A DNA stretch of 64,000 nucleotides from Escherichia coli (lineage in GTDB: Bacteria > Pseudomonadota > Gammaproteobacteria > Enterobacterales > Enterobacteriaceae). The stretch is taken from assembly GCF_013315695.1 (NCBI RefSeq), contig NZ_CP054353.1, one strand, 5' to 3'. A program made the position numbers and the translations under genes. A model generated the notes under the pieces. It had not been told where the DNA came from, did not search any database, and worked only from the letters and a program-made list of their open reading frames with translations. Below are positions 2,922-63,434 of the stretch, in pieces (position 1 is the first letter of the stretch; each line of letters begins with the position of its first letter).

Positions 2922-2976
2922 GGTGATGCTGCCAACTTACTGATTTAGTGTATGATGGTGTTTTTGAGGTGCTCCA

Positions 2977-3252
2977 GTGGCTTCTGTTTCTATCAGCTGT
3001 CCCTCCTGTTCAGCTACTGACGGGGTGGTGCGTAACGGCAAAAGCACCGCCGGACATCAGCGCTATCTCTGCTCTCACTGCCGTAAAACATGGCAACTGC
3101 AGTTCACTTACACCGCTTCTCAACCCGGTACGCACCAGAAAATCATTGATATGGCCATGAATGGCGTTGGATGCCGGGCAACAGCCCGCATTATGGGCGT
3201 TGGCCTCAACACGATTTTACGTCACTTAAAAAACTCAGGCCGCAGTCGGTAA
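2977..3252 (+). CDS. insA: IS1 InsA
   Basis: 91-aa product [39 protein letters not shown]... Confidence 0.95.
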
Positions 3253-9074: not shown

Positions 9075-9151
9075 TGGCGCGTTGTACTGGATTCGAACCA
9101 GTGACCGATTGCTTAGAAGGCAATTGCTCTGTCCGGCTGAGCTAACAACGC
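9075..9151 (-). tRNA. tRNA-Arg (anticodon UCU)
   Basis: Manual fold of the reverse complement: acceptor GCGTTGT/ACAACGC, D-arm GCTC/GAGC, anticodon stem ATTGC/GCAAT with loop CTTCTAA, T-arm ACTGG-TTCGAAT-CCAGT, discriminator G, CCA encoded. Confidence 0.8.
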
Positions 9152-9164
9152 AGGATACAGATAA

Positions 9165-9241
9165 TGGACCGCCTTCGGGGACCCGAACTCCGCGCAACCA
9201 GCTTCGAAAGCTGGCGCTCTTTCCTGATGAGCTAATGGCGG
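9165..9241 (-). tRNA. tRNA-like gene, Arg-type (anticodon UCG by manual fold), possibly degenerate
   Basis: D-arm TAGCTCATCAGGAAAGAGC, anticodon stem CCAGC/GCTGG with loop TTTCGAA, CCA encoded; one mismatch in the acceptor stem and one in the T stem; T-loop TTCGGGT is non-consensus. Confidence 0.5.
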
Positions 9242-9248
9242 TATGTGA

Positions 9249-9324
9249 TGGTGGCCCTTGCTGGATTTGAACCAGCGACCTGGCGATTATGAGTCGCTCG
9301 CTCTCACCACTGAGCTAAAGGGCC
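9249..9324 (-). tRNA. tRNA with CAU anticodon, ileX-like (tRNA-Ile2/lysidine type; could be Met)
   Basis: Acceptor GGCCCTT/AAGGGCC perfect, anticodon loop CTCATAA, T-arm GCTGG-TTCAAAT-CCAGC, discriminator A, CCA encoded; closely resembles E. coli ileX from memory. Confidence 0.8.
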
Positions 9325-17738: not shown

Positions 17739-18164
17739 TTAGTGCATCACCACAGCATTCCCTGCCGGGCCGCCGCGATTCATCTGGTCATACAAAACAA
17801 CCGCTGACGCAACAAAATCATCGACATCCTTCACCAGCCGATCCCTCCGTTCGACGATCTCACGGTAATATTCAGAACTGTGGCTGCGCATACGGGCCAC
17901 CAGCAAAGGCGGCATCGCCTTTTCGATCGCCGGTAACAGAGCCTGCATTTTTTCAACAGCATCAGGGGGGGCTTTCTCTACCCAGCGGAAAATTTTCTGG
18001 GTATTGCGAGCCAGGGCTTCCGGATGGCTGTCGTCATACAGTTCCGGGAACGTCATACCCAACTCAAAATAAGCCTGGGTTATTCCAGCTGCTGGAACTT
18101 TTTCGCCATCAGGACGCGCCCAGGCATTCATCGCCATGCGGATGTGTTCATGCTTGATTTTCAT
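17739..18164 (-). CDS. YdaT-like CII-type regulator
   Basis: 141-aa product MKIKHEHIRMAMNAWARPDGEKVPAAG...; position after the cro-like gene; assignment from my recall of Rac YdaT. Confidence 0.6.
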   Translation of the reverse strand: MKIKHEHIRMAMNAWARPDGEKVPAAGITQAYFELGMTFPELYDDSHPEALARNTQKIFRWVEKAPPDAVEKMQALLPAIEKAMPPLLVARMRSHSSEYYREIVERRDRLVKDVDDFVASAVVLYDQMNRGGPAGNAVVMH

Positions 18165-18429
18165 GAATCAAGCTCCTAGAAAGTGGTTGTGTTAACGTTT
18201 TGGTATCTTCCAGCTCGGGCCAAATATTCATCCAATCAAAAGGCCTTAGTTGCTGACGTGTAACTTCACCATTACTGGCTCGCTCAATAAGGACACATAA
18301 CGATGCCCCTAACACTTGACCTTTACTCAATGCCTTTCTTAGATAACCGATGCTGGTACCACACTCGCATGCAAACATACGCTGTTCATCTGACGAAAGA
18401 GAATTGAGAAATATTCTTAATTCTTCCAT
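18148..18429 (-). CDS. Cro-like HTH regulator (YdaS-like)
   Basis: 93-aa ORF divergent from the repressor gene; first gene of the minus-strand early operon. Confidence 0.55.
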   Translation of the reverse strand: MEELRIFLNSLSSDEQRMFACECGTSIGYLRKALSKGQVLGASLCVLIERASNGEVTRQQLRPFDWMNIWPELEDTKTLTQPLSRSLIHENQA

Positions 18430-18458
18430 AGCTACTCCTTAGTAAACACAGCAAAGAA

Positions 18459-18536
18459 TACCCACAGGTAAACAAAAGCCAATACCCACAGGTTGTTTAC
18501 CTTGCGGTAATCGCATCTATTATTTACCTATGGACA
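18459..18536. promoter_or_regulatory. OR-like operator cluster between cro-like and repressor genes
   Basis: Three TACC-N4-GGTA-type sites: TACCCACAGGTA (18459-18470), TACCCACAGGTT (18483-18494), TACCTATGGACA (18525-18536, overlapping the repressor ATG). Confidence 0.55.
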
Positions 18537-18949
18537 AATATGAATTTAGACGACAGCAACTCATCAAAATTCGTGATGAGAAATGCGATGGTAAAGCGGT
18601 TAACGTGGCCAGAAAGATCGGGCGCGAGCCTTCTTATGTATCAAGAATGTTGTACCCAGAGGGGAAAAAGGGAAAAAAACGGATCGCTGATGATATGGTG
18701 GAGATTATCGAAGAGTCCTTTGGGTTACCCCGGGGATGGATGGATGGTATCGTTTCATCATCAACGAACACAGCCTCCAGTTATGAAACAAGGGTTCTAA
18801 CGCCACGACAACGTATTTTTTTAGATCTCTTAGACGAACTGCCAGAAAGTGAAGCGGATAAATTATTAAAAACTCTTGAAGAGAAAAAACAGTATTACAA
18901 TATGATCTACGAAGAAATCCGTAAAAAGAAAGCACAAAACGCATCATAG
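18530..18949 (+). CDS. prophage repressor (CI-like, HTH)
   Basis: 139-aa ORF divergent from the cro-like gene; N-terminal HTH-like segment AVNVARKIGREPSYVSRMLY. Confidence 0.55.
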   Translation: MDKYEFRRQQLIKIRDEKCDGKAVNVARKIGREPSYVSRMLYPEGKKGKKRIADDMVEIIEESFGLPRGWMDGIVSSSTNTASSYETRVLTPRQRIFLDLLDELPESEADKLLKTLEEKKQYYNMIYEEIRKKKAQNAS

Positions 18950-18990
18950 CTCACCAAACAACTAGTCACCAGTTAAGACACCGCAAAATT

Positions 18991-19027
18991 TACCCATGGG
19001 TATTTACTTTTTAAATACCTATGGGTA
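18991..19027. promoter_or_regulatory. OL-like operator pair downstream of the repressor gene
   Basis: Perfect palindrome TACCCATGGGTA (18991-19002) and TACCTATGGGTA (19016-19027), same TACC-N4-GGTA architecture as the OR sites. Confidence 0.55.
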
Positions 19028-19213
19028 TCCTTCTTTTCATACCAACCCACCCCGCCCCACAGAATGCAGGGCAATACTTCGAGTTACCAGGCAGTGGTCA
19101 GGGGTTAAGTAGCCAGCCCGAGGCGTAAGAACATGACGGCAGGGTTCAACTTTAATAACTATGCAGCAGGTTTTTGTTCCGCTACCCCGGCGTTAAGGGG
19201 AAATGAGGTCAGC

Positions 19214-31771: not shown

Positions 31772-31791
31772 TACTGTATATACACCCAGTA
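31772..31791. promoter_or_regulatory. LexA (SOS) box upstream of the dinI-like gene
   Basis: TACTGTATATACACCCAGTA: CTGT-N8-CCAG, one mismatch from the CTGT-N8-ACAG core; overlapping palindrome ACAGTATAAATACTGT just upstream. Confidence 0.6.
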
Positions 31792-31806: not shown

Positions 31807-32034
31807 ATGTTCGTGGAACTCGTTTATGGCAAAAGGAATTTTGATGGACTGCCCGGTGCAAAAGATATCATTCTGGGCGAGTTGACCAAGAGGGTTCACC
31901 GGATTTTCCCCGGCGCTGATGTCCGGGTTAAACCGATGATGACATTGCCGGCGATCAACACTGACGCCAACAAGCATGAGAATGAACAGATAAGCCGTAC
32001 TGTTCAGGAAATGTTTGAAGAGACTGATATGTAG
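31807..32034 (+). CDS. DinI-like protein
   Basis: 75-aa product MFVELVYGKRNFDGLPGAKDIILGELTKRVHRIFPGADVRVKPMMTLPAINTDANKHENEQISRTVQEMFEETDM; AGAGG RBS; LexA box upstream. Confidence 0.7.
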   Translation: MFVELVYGKRNFDGLPGAKDIILGELTKRVHRIFPGADVRVKPMMTLPAINTDANKHENEQISRTVQEMFEETDM

Positions 32035-32122
32035 CTGTTTTCAGATTAAACGCCTTGAACCGTCACACTGATTAAGTACAATCCGGCGTGGTTGCGGCTT
32101 CCAGATTATAAGAATGATTCCC

Positions 32123-62300: not shown

Positions 62301-63041
62301 GGAGTTGTACCAGTCAGCAGATTCCGGTACGTCAGTTTGCTCGCCCCAGGTTTGCGGAGACGCAGGAGGCAGGTCGCAGTACCAGTCGTAGAAGCTTAAG
62401 CAAGTACCGCCAATCAGCGAAAGATAGCGTGCACCCGATGCGTAAGAAACCATCGACATTGCCGGAATTGGCGAGAAGCCAGCGACGCGGTCCGGGCCGT
62501 AGTTTTTGATGGTGTAAACGTTAGAGGCGGCGATCAGTTCATTCACTTCCTGCCAGGAAGAACGAACAAAACCACCGCGTCCACGCGCCTGCTTAAAGCT
62601 TTTCGCTTTATCGGCGTCTTCAATGATAGAAGCCCATGCCTCAACCGGATCGCTATGCAGCGCCTTCGCTTCACGCCACATTTTCATCAGGCGTTTGCGC
62701 ATCATTGGGTATTTCAGGCGGTTGGCGCTGTAAAGATACCAGGAGTAGCTGGCACCGCGCGGGCAGCCGCGAGGTTCATGGTTTGGCAGGTCCGGGCGAG
62801 TACGCGGATAGTCAGTCTGCTGGGTTTCCCAGGTCACCAGACCGTTTTTGACGTAGATTTTCCAGCTGCAGGAGCCGGTGCAGTTTACCCCGTGGGTAGA
62901 GCGGACGATTTTGTCATGCTGCCAACGCTGGCGATATCCATCCTCCCAGTCACGGTTGGTATTGAGAAGCTGGCCATGCCCATCGGCAAAGGTTTCACCC
63001 TTCTGTTTGAAGTAGCGAAACCGGTCCAGGAATTTACTCAT
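59298..63041 (-). CDS. narG: respiratory nitrate reductase 1 alpha subunit
   Basis: 1247-aa molybdopterin oxidoreductase MSKFLDRFRYFKQKGETFADGHGQ... Confidence 0.97.
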   Translation of the reverse strand: MSKFLDRFRYFKQKGETFADGHGQLLNTNRDWEDGYRQRWQHDKIVRSTHGVNCTGSCSWKIYVKNGLVTWETQQTDYPRTRPDLPNHEPRGCPRGASYSWYLYSANRLKYPMMRKRLMKMWREAKALHSDPVEAWASIIEDADKAKSFKQARGRGGFVRSSWQEVNELIAASNVYTIKNYGPDRVAGFSPIPAMSMVSYASGARYLSLIGGTCLSFYDWYCDLPPASPQTWGEQTDVPESADWYNSSYIIAWGSNVPQTRTPDAHFFTEVRYKGTKTVAVTPDYAEIAKLCDLWLAPKQGTDAAMALAMGHVMLREFHLDNPSQYFTDYVRRYTDMPMLVMLEERDGYYAAGRMLRAADLVDALGQENNPEWKTVAFNTNGEMVAPNGSIGFRWGEKGKWNLEQRDGKTGEETELQLSLLGSQDEIAEVGFPYFGGDGTEHFNKVELENVLLHKLPVKRLQLADGSTALVTTVYDLTLANYGLERGLNDVNCAASYDDVKAYTPAWAEQITGVSRSQIIRIAREFADNADKTHGRSMIIVGAGLNHWYHLDMNYRGLINMLIFCGCVGQSGGGWAHYVGQEKLRPQTGWQPLAFALDWQRPARHMNSTSYFYNHSSQWRYETVTAEELLSPMADKSRYTGHLIDFNVRAERMGWLPSAPQLGTNPLTIAREAEKAGMNPVDYTVKSLKEGSIRFAAEQPENGKNHPRNLFIWRSNLLGSSGKGHEFMLKYLLGTEHGIQGKDLGQQGGVKPEEVDWQDNGLEGKLDLVVTLDFRLSSTCLYSDIILPTATWYEKDDMNTSDMHPFIHPLSAAVDPAWEAKSDWEIYKAIARKFSEVCVGHLGKETDIVTLPIQHDSAAELAQPLDVKDWKKGECDLIPGKTAPHIMVVERDYPATYERFTSIGPLMEKIGNGGKGIAWNTQSEMDLLRKLNYTKAEGPAKGQPMLNTAIDAAEMILTLAPETNGQVAVKAWAALSEFTGRDHTHLALNKEDEKIRFRDIQAQPRKIISSPTWSGLEDEHVSYNAGYTNVHELIPWRTLSGRQQLYQDHQWMRDFGESLLVYRPPIDTRSVKEVMGQKSNGNPEKALNFLTPHQKWGIHSTYSDNLLMLTLGRGGPVVWLSEADAKDLGIADNDWIEVFNSNGALTARAVVSQRVPAGMTMMYHAQERIVNLPGSEITQQRGGIHNSVTRITPKPTHMIGGYAHLAYGFNYYGTVGSNRDEFVVVRKMKNIDWLDGEGNDQVQESVK

Positions 63042-63132
63042 CGGTTTTCTCCTGTGGGAGCCTGTCGGCCCTCTGATAAATCGACATTGCTAATGTTTAA
63101 GGGCAAAGTAACGCTCTGAAACAGCGTGAGAA

Positions 63133-63146
63133 TTGATAACGATCAA
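63133..63146. promoter_or_regulatory. FNR box in the narG promoter
   Basis: Perfect TTGAT-AACG-ATCAA about 92 bp upstream of the narG start codon; NarL-heptamer-like TACCCCT further upstream (about 63184-63190). Confidence 0.7.
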
Positions 63147-63434
63147 GAGTGATGGGGATGAAAAATAAAGTAAATTCCTAAGATACCCCTTTAGGATAAT
63201 TAGCAGTTACAGCATAACACGCTGTAAATTAAGACGTTTTATACCTGTAGTTATTTAAACTATTAAGATTTTTATGCAGATGGGTATTAAGGAGTATTCC
63301 CCATGGGTAACATATTAATGGCTCTTAATGAAATCCGGCGAAATAAGCCAATATAATATGAGTATGTTGTAACTAAATGACGCATAAAAAAAGCGCGACA
63401 TCATGCCGCGCAAAGGATAATCAAATATTAAGAT

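Follow-up and report, generated by a model that had tools for sequence, protein, structure and literature searches.

A TACC-N4-GGTA operator family and a predicted lambda-type lysogeny switch in a Qin/Rac-type prophage of Escherichia coli

Operator-like sites in the immunity region

The early region of a Qin/Rac-type lambdoid prophage, which adjoins ompW, lies within a 64,000-nucleotide stretch of Escherichia coli contig NZ_CP054353.1 (the window, meaning hereafter the whole stretch that was analyzed). A Cro-like gene and a repressor gene are divergently transcribed from the two sides of a 100-bp gap in this region; three sites resembling the dyad TACC-N4-GGTA are located in the gap and two more just 3′ of the repressor gene. 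A preliminary description had likened this arrangement to the right and left operators (OR and OL) of lambdoid immunity regions. The forward, reverse and control comparisons reported here support that layout, and we regard it as highly probable, judging from sequence, that the five sites are the OR and OL operator sets of a lambda-type lysogeny switch, bound by dimers of the repressor through its N-terminal domain. The predicted right and left early promoters (PR and PL) and the repressor-maintenance promoter (PRM) are named after their lambda counterparts. The sites and the genes that frame them are:

18459..18470, O1, OR1-like predicted operator, TACCCACAGGTA; exact match; -71 from the repressor ATG; weight-matrix rank 2
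18483..18494, O2, OR2-like predicted operator, TACCCACAGGTT; one mismatch to the pattern; right half degenerate; abuts the predicted PR -35
18498..18509, O3, OR3-like predicted operator, TACCTTGCGGTA; exact match; -32 from the ATG; overlaps the PRM -35 hexamer
18991..19002, OL-a, predicted operator, TACCCATGGGTA; exact match; perfect palindrome; weight-matrix rank 1; abuts the predicted PL -35
19016..19027, OL-b, predicted operator, TACCTATGGGTA; exact match; fills the PL spacer; its final TA starts the -10
18148..18429, minus strand, Cro-like gene, 93 amino acids, YdaS family (PF15943 with E 9e-6, under the Pfam cutoff; phrog_35); first gene of the predicted PR operon
17739..18164, minus strand, YdaT/CII-like gene (PF06254; phrog_163); second gene of the predicted PR operon; context, not a binder of these sites
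18530..18949, plus strand, repressor gene, 139 amino acids (PHROG "transcriptional regulator"; no Pfam family)

Exact matches to TACCNNNNGGTA occur four times in the window, at 18459, 18498, 18991 and 19016, all of them inside 18459-19027, against an expectation of 0.28; none of 100 dinucleotide-preserving shuffles reached four. Over the whole window, matches with one mismatch are near chance (21 found, 13 expected), so the signal resides in the tight cluster of exact copies rather than in the relaxed count. When a weight matrix built from the sites of other loci alone is applied to the window, the five sites rank 1, 2, 3, 5 and 7. The left end of O1 shares two nucleotides with the predicted PR -10, and the center of O2 is at about -41.5 relative to the repressor ATG. 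OL-a, the perfect 12-bp palindrome of the preliminary description, is 25 bp from OL-b, and this pair occupies nucleotides 42-78 past the repressor stop codon. A sixth candidate over the repressor ATG (18525-18536, TACCTATGGACA), considered by analogy with RacR O3, was rejected: its weight-matrix rank is 19 and it is conserved in no relative.

Conservation of sites and promoters

One genome per species was scanned with an alignment of the repressor N-terminal domain as query, which yielded 29 loci, and the phages mEp043 and CharmingMan were added. Layout and bit statistics refer to 26 non-redundant loci that encode relatives of this domain. The three upstream sites recur at about -72, -47/-48 and -32/-33 from the repressor ATG; the first is at -71 to -75 in 25 relatives, and the second is at -47/-48 with a degenerate right half (GGTT or GGGA) in 20 loci, as in the window. 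One repressor start (locus L005) is annotated 9 nt upstream of MDKYE, and the sites of that locus are clear. The downstream pair is present in 23 of the 26 loci, spaced by 25 bp in 17 and by 26 bp in 6, and is found downstream of the repressor gene, 42 to 1,837 bp from its stop codon. Hosts with the conserved layout include Aeromonas, Xanthomonas, Neisseria, Paraburkholderia, Herbaspirillum and Ferrovum, and the operator type is common to the two phages and to prophages across Gamma- and Betaproteobacteria. Each of the eight specified bases of TACC/GGTA carries 1.6-2.0 bits and the N4 core 0-1.1 bits; 47 different cores were found among 115 sites, with only a pyrimidine-purine preference. The core thus varies freely and it is TACC/GGTA itself that is under selection, and we infer an operator half-site TACCYR in a 12-bp dyad.

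The sites are also in register with the following promoter elements:

18477..18482, minus strand, predicted PR -35, TTGGCT; directly abuts O2
18455..18460, minus strand, predicted PR -10, TATTCT; 16-nt spacer; overlaps the left end of O1 by its first two bases
18496..18501, plus strand, PRM -35, TTTACC; overlaps O3; called by the promoter scan
18518..18523, plus strand, PRM -10, TATTAT; 16-nt spacer; separated from the repressor ATG by 6 nt; also reported by the promoter scan
19003..19008, plus strand, predicted PL -35, TTTACT (4/6); follows OL-a directly
19026..19031, plus strand, predicted PL -10, TATCCT (4/6); 17-nt spacer; reads into the DUF1391 (ydfA-like)...dicB...exo...xis...int operon

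The PR -35 position matches TTGACA at 4/6 or better in 17 of 20 loci, and the TCAA that adjoins O2 carries 2.0 bits. In these 20 loci PR typically reads TTGAyt, a spacer of 16-17 nt, and TAAnnT or TAnnnT; the conserved bases of this -10 are A2 and T6, the key flanking bases of a sigma-70 -10. Downstream of the PR -10 in the window are a Shine-Dalgarno sequence AAGGAG and then the cro ATG. At the PRM -35 position, TTTACC is found in 18 of 24 loci, followed in relatives by a spacer of 16-18 nt and a TAnAAT-like -10 that ends 5-7 nt before the ATG in all 24, and this short distance implies a leaderless repressor mRNA. Leaderless repressor mRNAs have been demonstrated experimentally for racR (PMC9638921) and paaR2 (PMC8630535). 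The PL -35 position matches TTGACA at 4/6 or better in 15 of the 22 other loci with the pair, most of which have TTGACn, and the GenBank record of mEp043 annotates a putative PL at the equivalent place. The predicted PR and PL thus share one design, namely an operator, a -35, a second operator in the spacer, and a -10.

We also searched in the reverse direction, comparing the bare pair pattern (16 specified bases) with viral contigs, of which at least 120 matched. Among the matches listed, the N-terminal domain is encoded (E <= 1e-5) by 87 of 120 viral contigs, with a median of 795 bp between pair and domain, and the Cro family by 83 of 120. Two viral contigs (L082 and L101) have two separate TACC-N4-GGTA pairs each and no domain homolog detected at E <= 1e-5; their repressor may be a more divergent one with the same specificity.

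Phage Tritos provides a control. It shares with the window the ydaT-like and DUF1391 flanks and the tail of the repressor, but has a different DNA-binding domain and a different Cro, and its immunity region contains no TACC-N4-GGTA site. Instead, its own repeat ACTTTTAGTACAT is present at both places, between cro and cI and just before the right boundary shared with the window (at about 19043). The position of the latter copy indicates that the downstream pair lies inside an exchangeable immunity cassette. The forward and reverse searches and the comparisons with Tritos, Rac and Qin together show that a different DNA-binding domain in the repressor goes with a different operator sequence. The proposal that the operator defines the immunity specificity of this prophage is therefore supported in that respect, although the operator is not peculiar to the prophage: what it marks is an immunity type, of which this prophage is one member. 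The description of the operator family as distinctive should be qualified accordingly, since the family is common to many phages and prophages of two proteobacterial classes.

The repressor consists of two modules

The repressor comprises a putative XRE-like helix-turn-helix (HTH) domain (residues 1 to about 76), a linker (77-87) and a helical DicA-like tail (88-139). A Pfam search of the protein gave no match, including no HTH family and no PF00717 (the S24 peptidase domain), whereas PF00717 is present in many relatives that share its N-terminal domain. At 64-82% identity, the domain formed by residues 1 to about 76 is also found at the N-terminus of LexA/S24-type repressors of 221-242 amino acids in Salmonella, Edwardsiella, Yersinia, Klebsiella, Pantoea and others, and in cI of coliphage mEp043. 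Residues 88-139 recur in Tritos CI, whose N-terminal half is unrelated. The tail also resembles the C-terminus of DicA: residues 86-136 match the NCBIfam DicA model with E 1.9e-5 and 24.5 bits, far under the cutoff of 101, and in pairwise BLASTP the tail matches DicA residues 84-129 with E 6e-7, the N-terminal domains of the two proteins being unrelated.

An AlphaFold2 model (mean predicted local distance difference test score, pLDDT, 87) has a compact helical N-terminal domain, which a disordered linker (77-87) joins to two C-terminal helices, of which one is long. The N-terminal domain is modeled at pLDDT >90, with helices at 3-18, 23-30, 34-40 and 54-63. A PDB sequence search with the repressor gave no meaningful match to solved structures. 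Foldseek matched the N-terminal domain to XRE-type HTH proteins (SPC32H Rep, C.Esp1396I and HigA) with probability 0.9-1.0 and weak E-values of 1e-3 to 0.3; the top match is the Rep repressor of Salmonella phage SPC32H, for which a structure of the complex with its antirepressor is available. Conservation of the putative recognition helix, SYVSRML, is at least 90% in the domain family, in parallel with the invariant half-site, and the helix is different in Tritos. These results suggest that the N-terminal domain is an XRE-like helix-turn-helix that would bind TACC-N4-GGTA as a dimer.

The downstream pair as probable operator and possible terminator

The two downstream sites are near-identical palindromes and are therefore hairpin-forming. 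A terminator scan called:

18991..19037, plus strand, terminator-like RNA hairpin from the two OL sites; 16-bp stem, 5-nt loop, tail TCCTTCTTTT

The spacer extends the stem to 16 bp, and the hairpin folds at -23.4 kcal/mol (z -5.4), which makes it the most stable among the 23 loci with the pair (the others range from -4.4 to -17.1 kcal/mol). Of these loci the window also has its pair nearest to the repressor stop codon (42 nt), with no other terminator between. One could thus see in the pair (18991-19027) nothing but an intrinsic terminator for the repressor gene, and argue that its likeness to the upstream sites is incidental and that neither OL nor PL exists; the predicted PL hexamers of the window, each matching at 4/6, are weak enough to agree with this view. 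We nevertheless consider it quite improbable. Both arms of the hairpin are exact copies of an 8-base motif that is otherwise confined to the intergenic sites in the 64 kb. Moreover, the pair occurs in 23 of 26 relatives at distances up to 1.8 kb past the stop codon, with genes between, with much weaker hairpins, and with TTGAC and TAnnnT in fixed register; in mEp043 a separate, canonical GC-rich terminator precedes the pair; and the pair of the window lies inside the swapped immunity cassette. The reading of the pair as an operator leaves room for a second role. It is plausible, the chances being about even, that the OL pair doubles as the terminator of the repressor gene in this prophage, which would be sensible because readthrough would otherwise enter the dicB operon.

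Which protein recognizes the sites

Of the 26 genome loci, 22 encode Cro homologs with a conserved motif CGTSIGYLRKA next to the operators, and this co-occurrence, together with that in the viral contigs, is what would be expected if the sites were bound only by the YdaS-family Cro-like protein or by the YdaT/CII-like protein, with the 139-amino-acid protein acting elsewhere. Cro does bind the same operators in lambda-type switches, and YdaS of CP-933P binds its own intergenic region (PMC8630535). However, four Klebsiella loci (L009, L011, L012 and L014) with O1, O3, the downstream pair and the repressor domain have neither a Cro homolog nor an upstream minus-strand open reading frame, so the motif follows the repressor. 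Their repressor is of the S24 type, O1 and O3 are 40 bp apart (at locus positions of about 2925-3000), O2 is replaced by a conserved gttttgctatatttt, and the downstream pair has the tttatttttaa spacer type, as in the window. In Tritos the motif is lost with the exchange of the repressor N-terminal domain, a control that cannot separate the repressor from Cro because Cro is exchanged there too. As for YdaT, mEp043 has the same sites but a lambda-type CII in its place, and YdaT of CP-933P recognizes a different sequence, TTGATTN6AATCAA (PMC9986795). Exclusive binding by either of these proteins is thus very improbable. By analogy with lambda and CP-933P, these sites are probably shared between the repressor and the Cro-like YdaS-family protein.

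The NarL heptamer is TACYYMT, which the half-site TACCCAT fits, and the next-best weight-matrix matches in the window sit upstream of narG (63035-63309), where NarL heptamers are expected; even so, the notion that the five sites are targets of a host regulator such as NarL or NarP, or a chance cluster, is hardly tenable, since chance is ruled out by the shuffles, the layout is kept far outside Enterobacteriaceae and, in the forward and the reverse search alike, goes with a phage repressor domain, and the matches near narG are all mismatched and differently spaced. The narK-narG intergenic region (63035-63309) contains three look-alikes with one mismatch, TCCCCATGGGTA, TACCTGTAGTTA and TACTCATCGGTT, which resemble NarL heptamers; their likeness to the operator half-site is probably a coincidence.

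A proposed lysogeny switch

Taking the five sites as OR and OL, repressor dimers on O1 and O2 would occlude PR and dimers on OL-a and OL-b would occlude PL, a step that is well supported. As O1 overlaps the PR -10 and O2 abuts the PR -35, occupation of both should turn lytic transcription off. The leftward PR would drive the cro-like gene, the ydaT/cII-like gene and the replication genes, and the rightward PL, whose -35 is bracketed and whose spacer is filled by the OL pair, would drive the operon of the ydfA-like gene, dicB, the exonuclease gene, xis and int. O2 is placed where lambda CI activates PRM, being centered at about -41.5 from the PRM start, and by this analogy it may activate PRM. 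O3 covers the PRM -35 and could mediate negative autoregulation at high repressor levels, and binding may be cooperative between paired sites at the spacing of about 25 bp, again as in lambda. In the RNA of this prophage, the OL pair may terminate the repressor transcript.

In place of an S24 domain the repressor carries a DicA-like tail, so induction is probably brought about by an antirepressor or a Cro-driven flip and not by RecA-stimulated cleavage; DicA with Rem (bioRxiv 10.1101/2023.04.14.536235) and the Gifsy repressors (PMC3121763) are precedents. The antirepressors that control short repressors of the DicA/GfoR type are often under LexA control. The sole exact match to the LexA box CTGT-N8-ACAG in the window lies within adhE.

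Several observations weigh against this interpretation. Three homolog loci, L024 (Nitrosomonas marina), L031 and L034 (Advenella), with 68%, 42% and 38% identity in the DNA-binding domain, respectively, have no TACC-N4-GGTA near the gene. Among the motif-retrieved viral loci listed, 33 of 120 have no domain homolog at E <= 1e-5, some of them with the pair at the edge of the locus. A generic promoter scan of the window called PRM only, neither PR nor PL, and the hexamers of both PR and PL match the consensus at just 4/6 + 4/6. The match of the N-terminal domain to solved repressors is weak (E 1e-3 or worse), and the domain belongs to no Pfam family. O2 and O3 are only 15 bp apart, unlike in lambda, so that the order of occupancy and the activation by O2 are conjecture. 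The window covers only part of the prophage, and no antirepressor is annotated in that part. Finally, the case for the predicted operators, promoters and terminator is one of sequence statistics and comparison throughout.

Two further observations are of note. L031 and L034 have in common, upstream of the gene, a conserved stretch of another kind, which contains ataccg...cggt. In the window, a near-consensus LexA box TACTGTATATACACCCAGTA at 31772-31791 is directly upstream of a DinI-like gene (31818-32045, plus strand) in a second, degraded phage remnant with a tail-fiber fragment, an IS3 transposase and an integrase fragment (about 32.1-33.6 kb); no antirepressor open reading frame was identified at this remnant.

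Genomic context

Leftward of the gap, the YdaS-family Cro-like gene and the YdaT/CII-like gene are followed by genes for an O-like replication initiator and a DnaC-like loader. Rightward, the order is the 139-amino-acid repressor gene, a DUF1391/ydfA-like gene, dicB, a gene for a 3′-5′ exonuclease, xis and int. A 616-bp cassette of this region is found in 821 of 5,426 complete E. coli genomes (15%), nearly always in single copy, and the repressor is labeled "hypothetical protein" in every RefSeq record listed. A contig labeled as a metagenome-assembled genome of Collinsella sp. (JAIJJM010000125.1) is essentially identical to the window in its immunity region, with 100% domain identity and the same sites; it is most likely E. 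coli prophage DNA that entered an actinobacterial assembly as a binning contaminant. In the late region of the prophage, three tRNA genes (Arg, Arg, Ile) are located at 9075-9324 (coordinates taken from the matching RefSeq record, whose CDS coordinates are those of the window), flanked by the lysis genes on one side and, on the other, by a DNA methyltransferase gene that lies downstream of Q.

Comparison with known systems

In lambda, OR has three sites, one site is centered near -42 of PRM, the repressor mRNA begins with the AUG, paired sites are about 24-25 bp apart, and the early leftward promoter, just beyond the repressor transcription unit, carries a second operator set. The window resembles it in the divergent repressor and cro genes, the three OR sites, the site near -42 of PRM, the repressor mRNA predicted to start at the AUG, the second operator set on an early promoter past the repressor unit, and paired sites about 25 bp apart. 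The differences are that the dyad is 12 bp here and 17 bp in lambda, that OL has two sites here and three in lambda, and that O2 and O3 are 15 bp apart center to center with a systematically half-degenerate middle site. Compared with lambda CI, the repressor is without the S24 self-cleavage domain, and its DNA-binding domain has no detectable sequence similarity to solved repressors.

Qin, rather than Rac, is the nearest precedent for the gene order, since the cro-like gene, the repressor gene, DUF1391 (ydfA) and dicB are arranged as in the window. dicF is annotated in Qin and in Tritos. The Qin repressor is also short, and it is the tail of DicA that the tail of the window repressor resembles. 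At Qin dicBp, upstream of ydfA, one operator precedes the -35 and one is in the spacer, both of the DicA type, which is the same design as that of the predicted PL; DicA represses dicBp and is antagonized by the antirepressor Rem (bioRxiv 10.1101/2023.04.14.536235). The N-terminal DNA-binding domain and the operator sequence differ between the two systems, and no TACC-N4-GGTA is present in the Qin immunity region.

Rac has YdaS- and YdaT-family neighbors as well. The racR gene has three published intergenic operators, of the sequence (T/A)TAGGC-n3-GCCTA(T/A), and a leaderless repressor promoter (PMC9638921). Membership of the window sites in this operator family was considered and rejected: the window has no TAGGC-n3-GCCTA, Rac has no TACC-N4-GGTA in its immunity region, and BLASTP between the repressor and RacR is not significant. 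The comparison with racR proposed in the preliminary description thus points to different operators and a non-homologous repressor. TAGGC-n3-GCCTA sites are found in Rac between racR and ydaS, with one more beyond racR. In K-12 Rac (L156) this RacR-type dyad, ATAGGCTATGCCTAA at locus position 355-369, lies past racR on the side of ydaG and of ydaF, a DUF1391 gene, at a place equivalent to that of the OL pair; the portion of PMC9638921 consulted discusses only the three intergenic operators.

In CP-933P of E. coli O157:H7 (paaR2/ydaS/ydaT), a bistable lambda-like switch has been demonstrated experimentally; it has PR, PRM and an analog of PL/OL, and its repressor gene is leaderless (PMC8630535). 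Its operators are 18-bp palindromes with the half-site GTTTAGTAA, its repressor is of a different family, and the repressor gene is co-transcribed with a toxin-antitoxin pair. The closest likeness in specificity is to mEp043 and also CharmingMan, which have the same DNA-binding-domain family (65% identity for mEp043), operator motif, three-plus-two layout and spacings, and a homologous Cro. mEp043 differs in that its cI has 228 amino acids with a LexA/S24-type C-terminal half, in that it has its own terminator before OL, and in its lambda-type CII and N. Our literature search found no description of the TACC-N4-GGTA motif or of the mEp043 operators.

Implications

As a kind, the system is textbook and brings no new form of regulation, and it is the specificity that appears undescribed. 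The self-cleaving S24 tail is found in mEp043 and in many Salmonella, Klebsiella and Pantoea prophages, and the DicA-like tail in the prophage of the window. These facts prompt a tentative suggestion, which we put forward as possible rather than probable: one specificity, comprising the DNA-binding domain and Cro, would be coupled by domain exchange to two induction modules, and the OL pair might have a dual function. If the domains share specificity, the hosts (15% of complete E. coli genomes) would be immune to S24-type phages such as mEp043. The prophage itself would then stay uninduced by the SOS signal that induces S24-type phages. The OL pair, in addition, may serve both as protein-binding DNA and as an RNA terminator that insulates the toxic dicB operon from readthrough of the repressor gene.

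A defined operator (TACCYR, the three-plus-two layout and the promoter register) would allow automatic annotation of the immunity type and prediction of which phages a given prophage excludes. The locus also offers an experimental system for one DNA-binding specificity with different induction modules, and for the silencing of the dicB/dicF cell-division inhibitors downstream of PL. Its interest comes mainly from its prevalence, from its deep conservation (Enterobacterales to Neisseria, Burkholderia and Xanthomonas) and from the natural exchange of induction modules.

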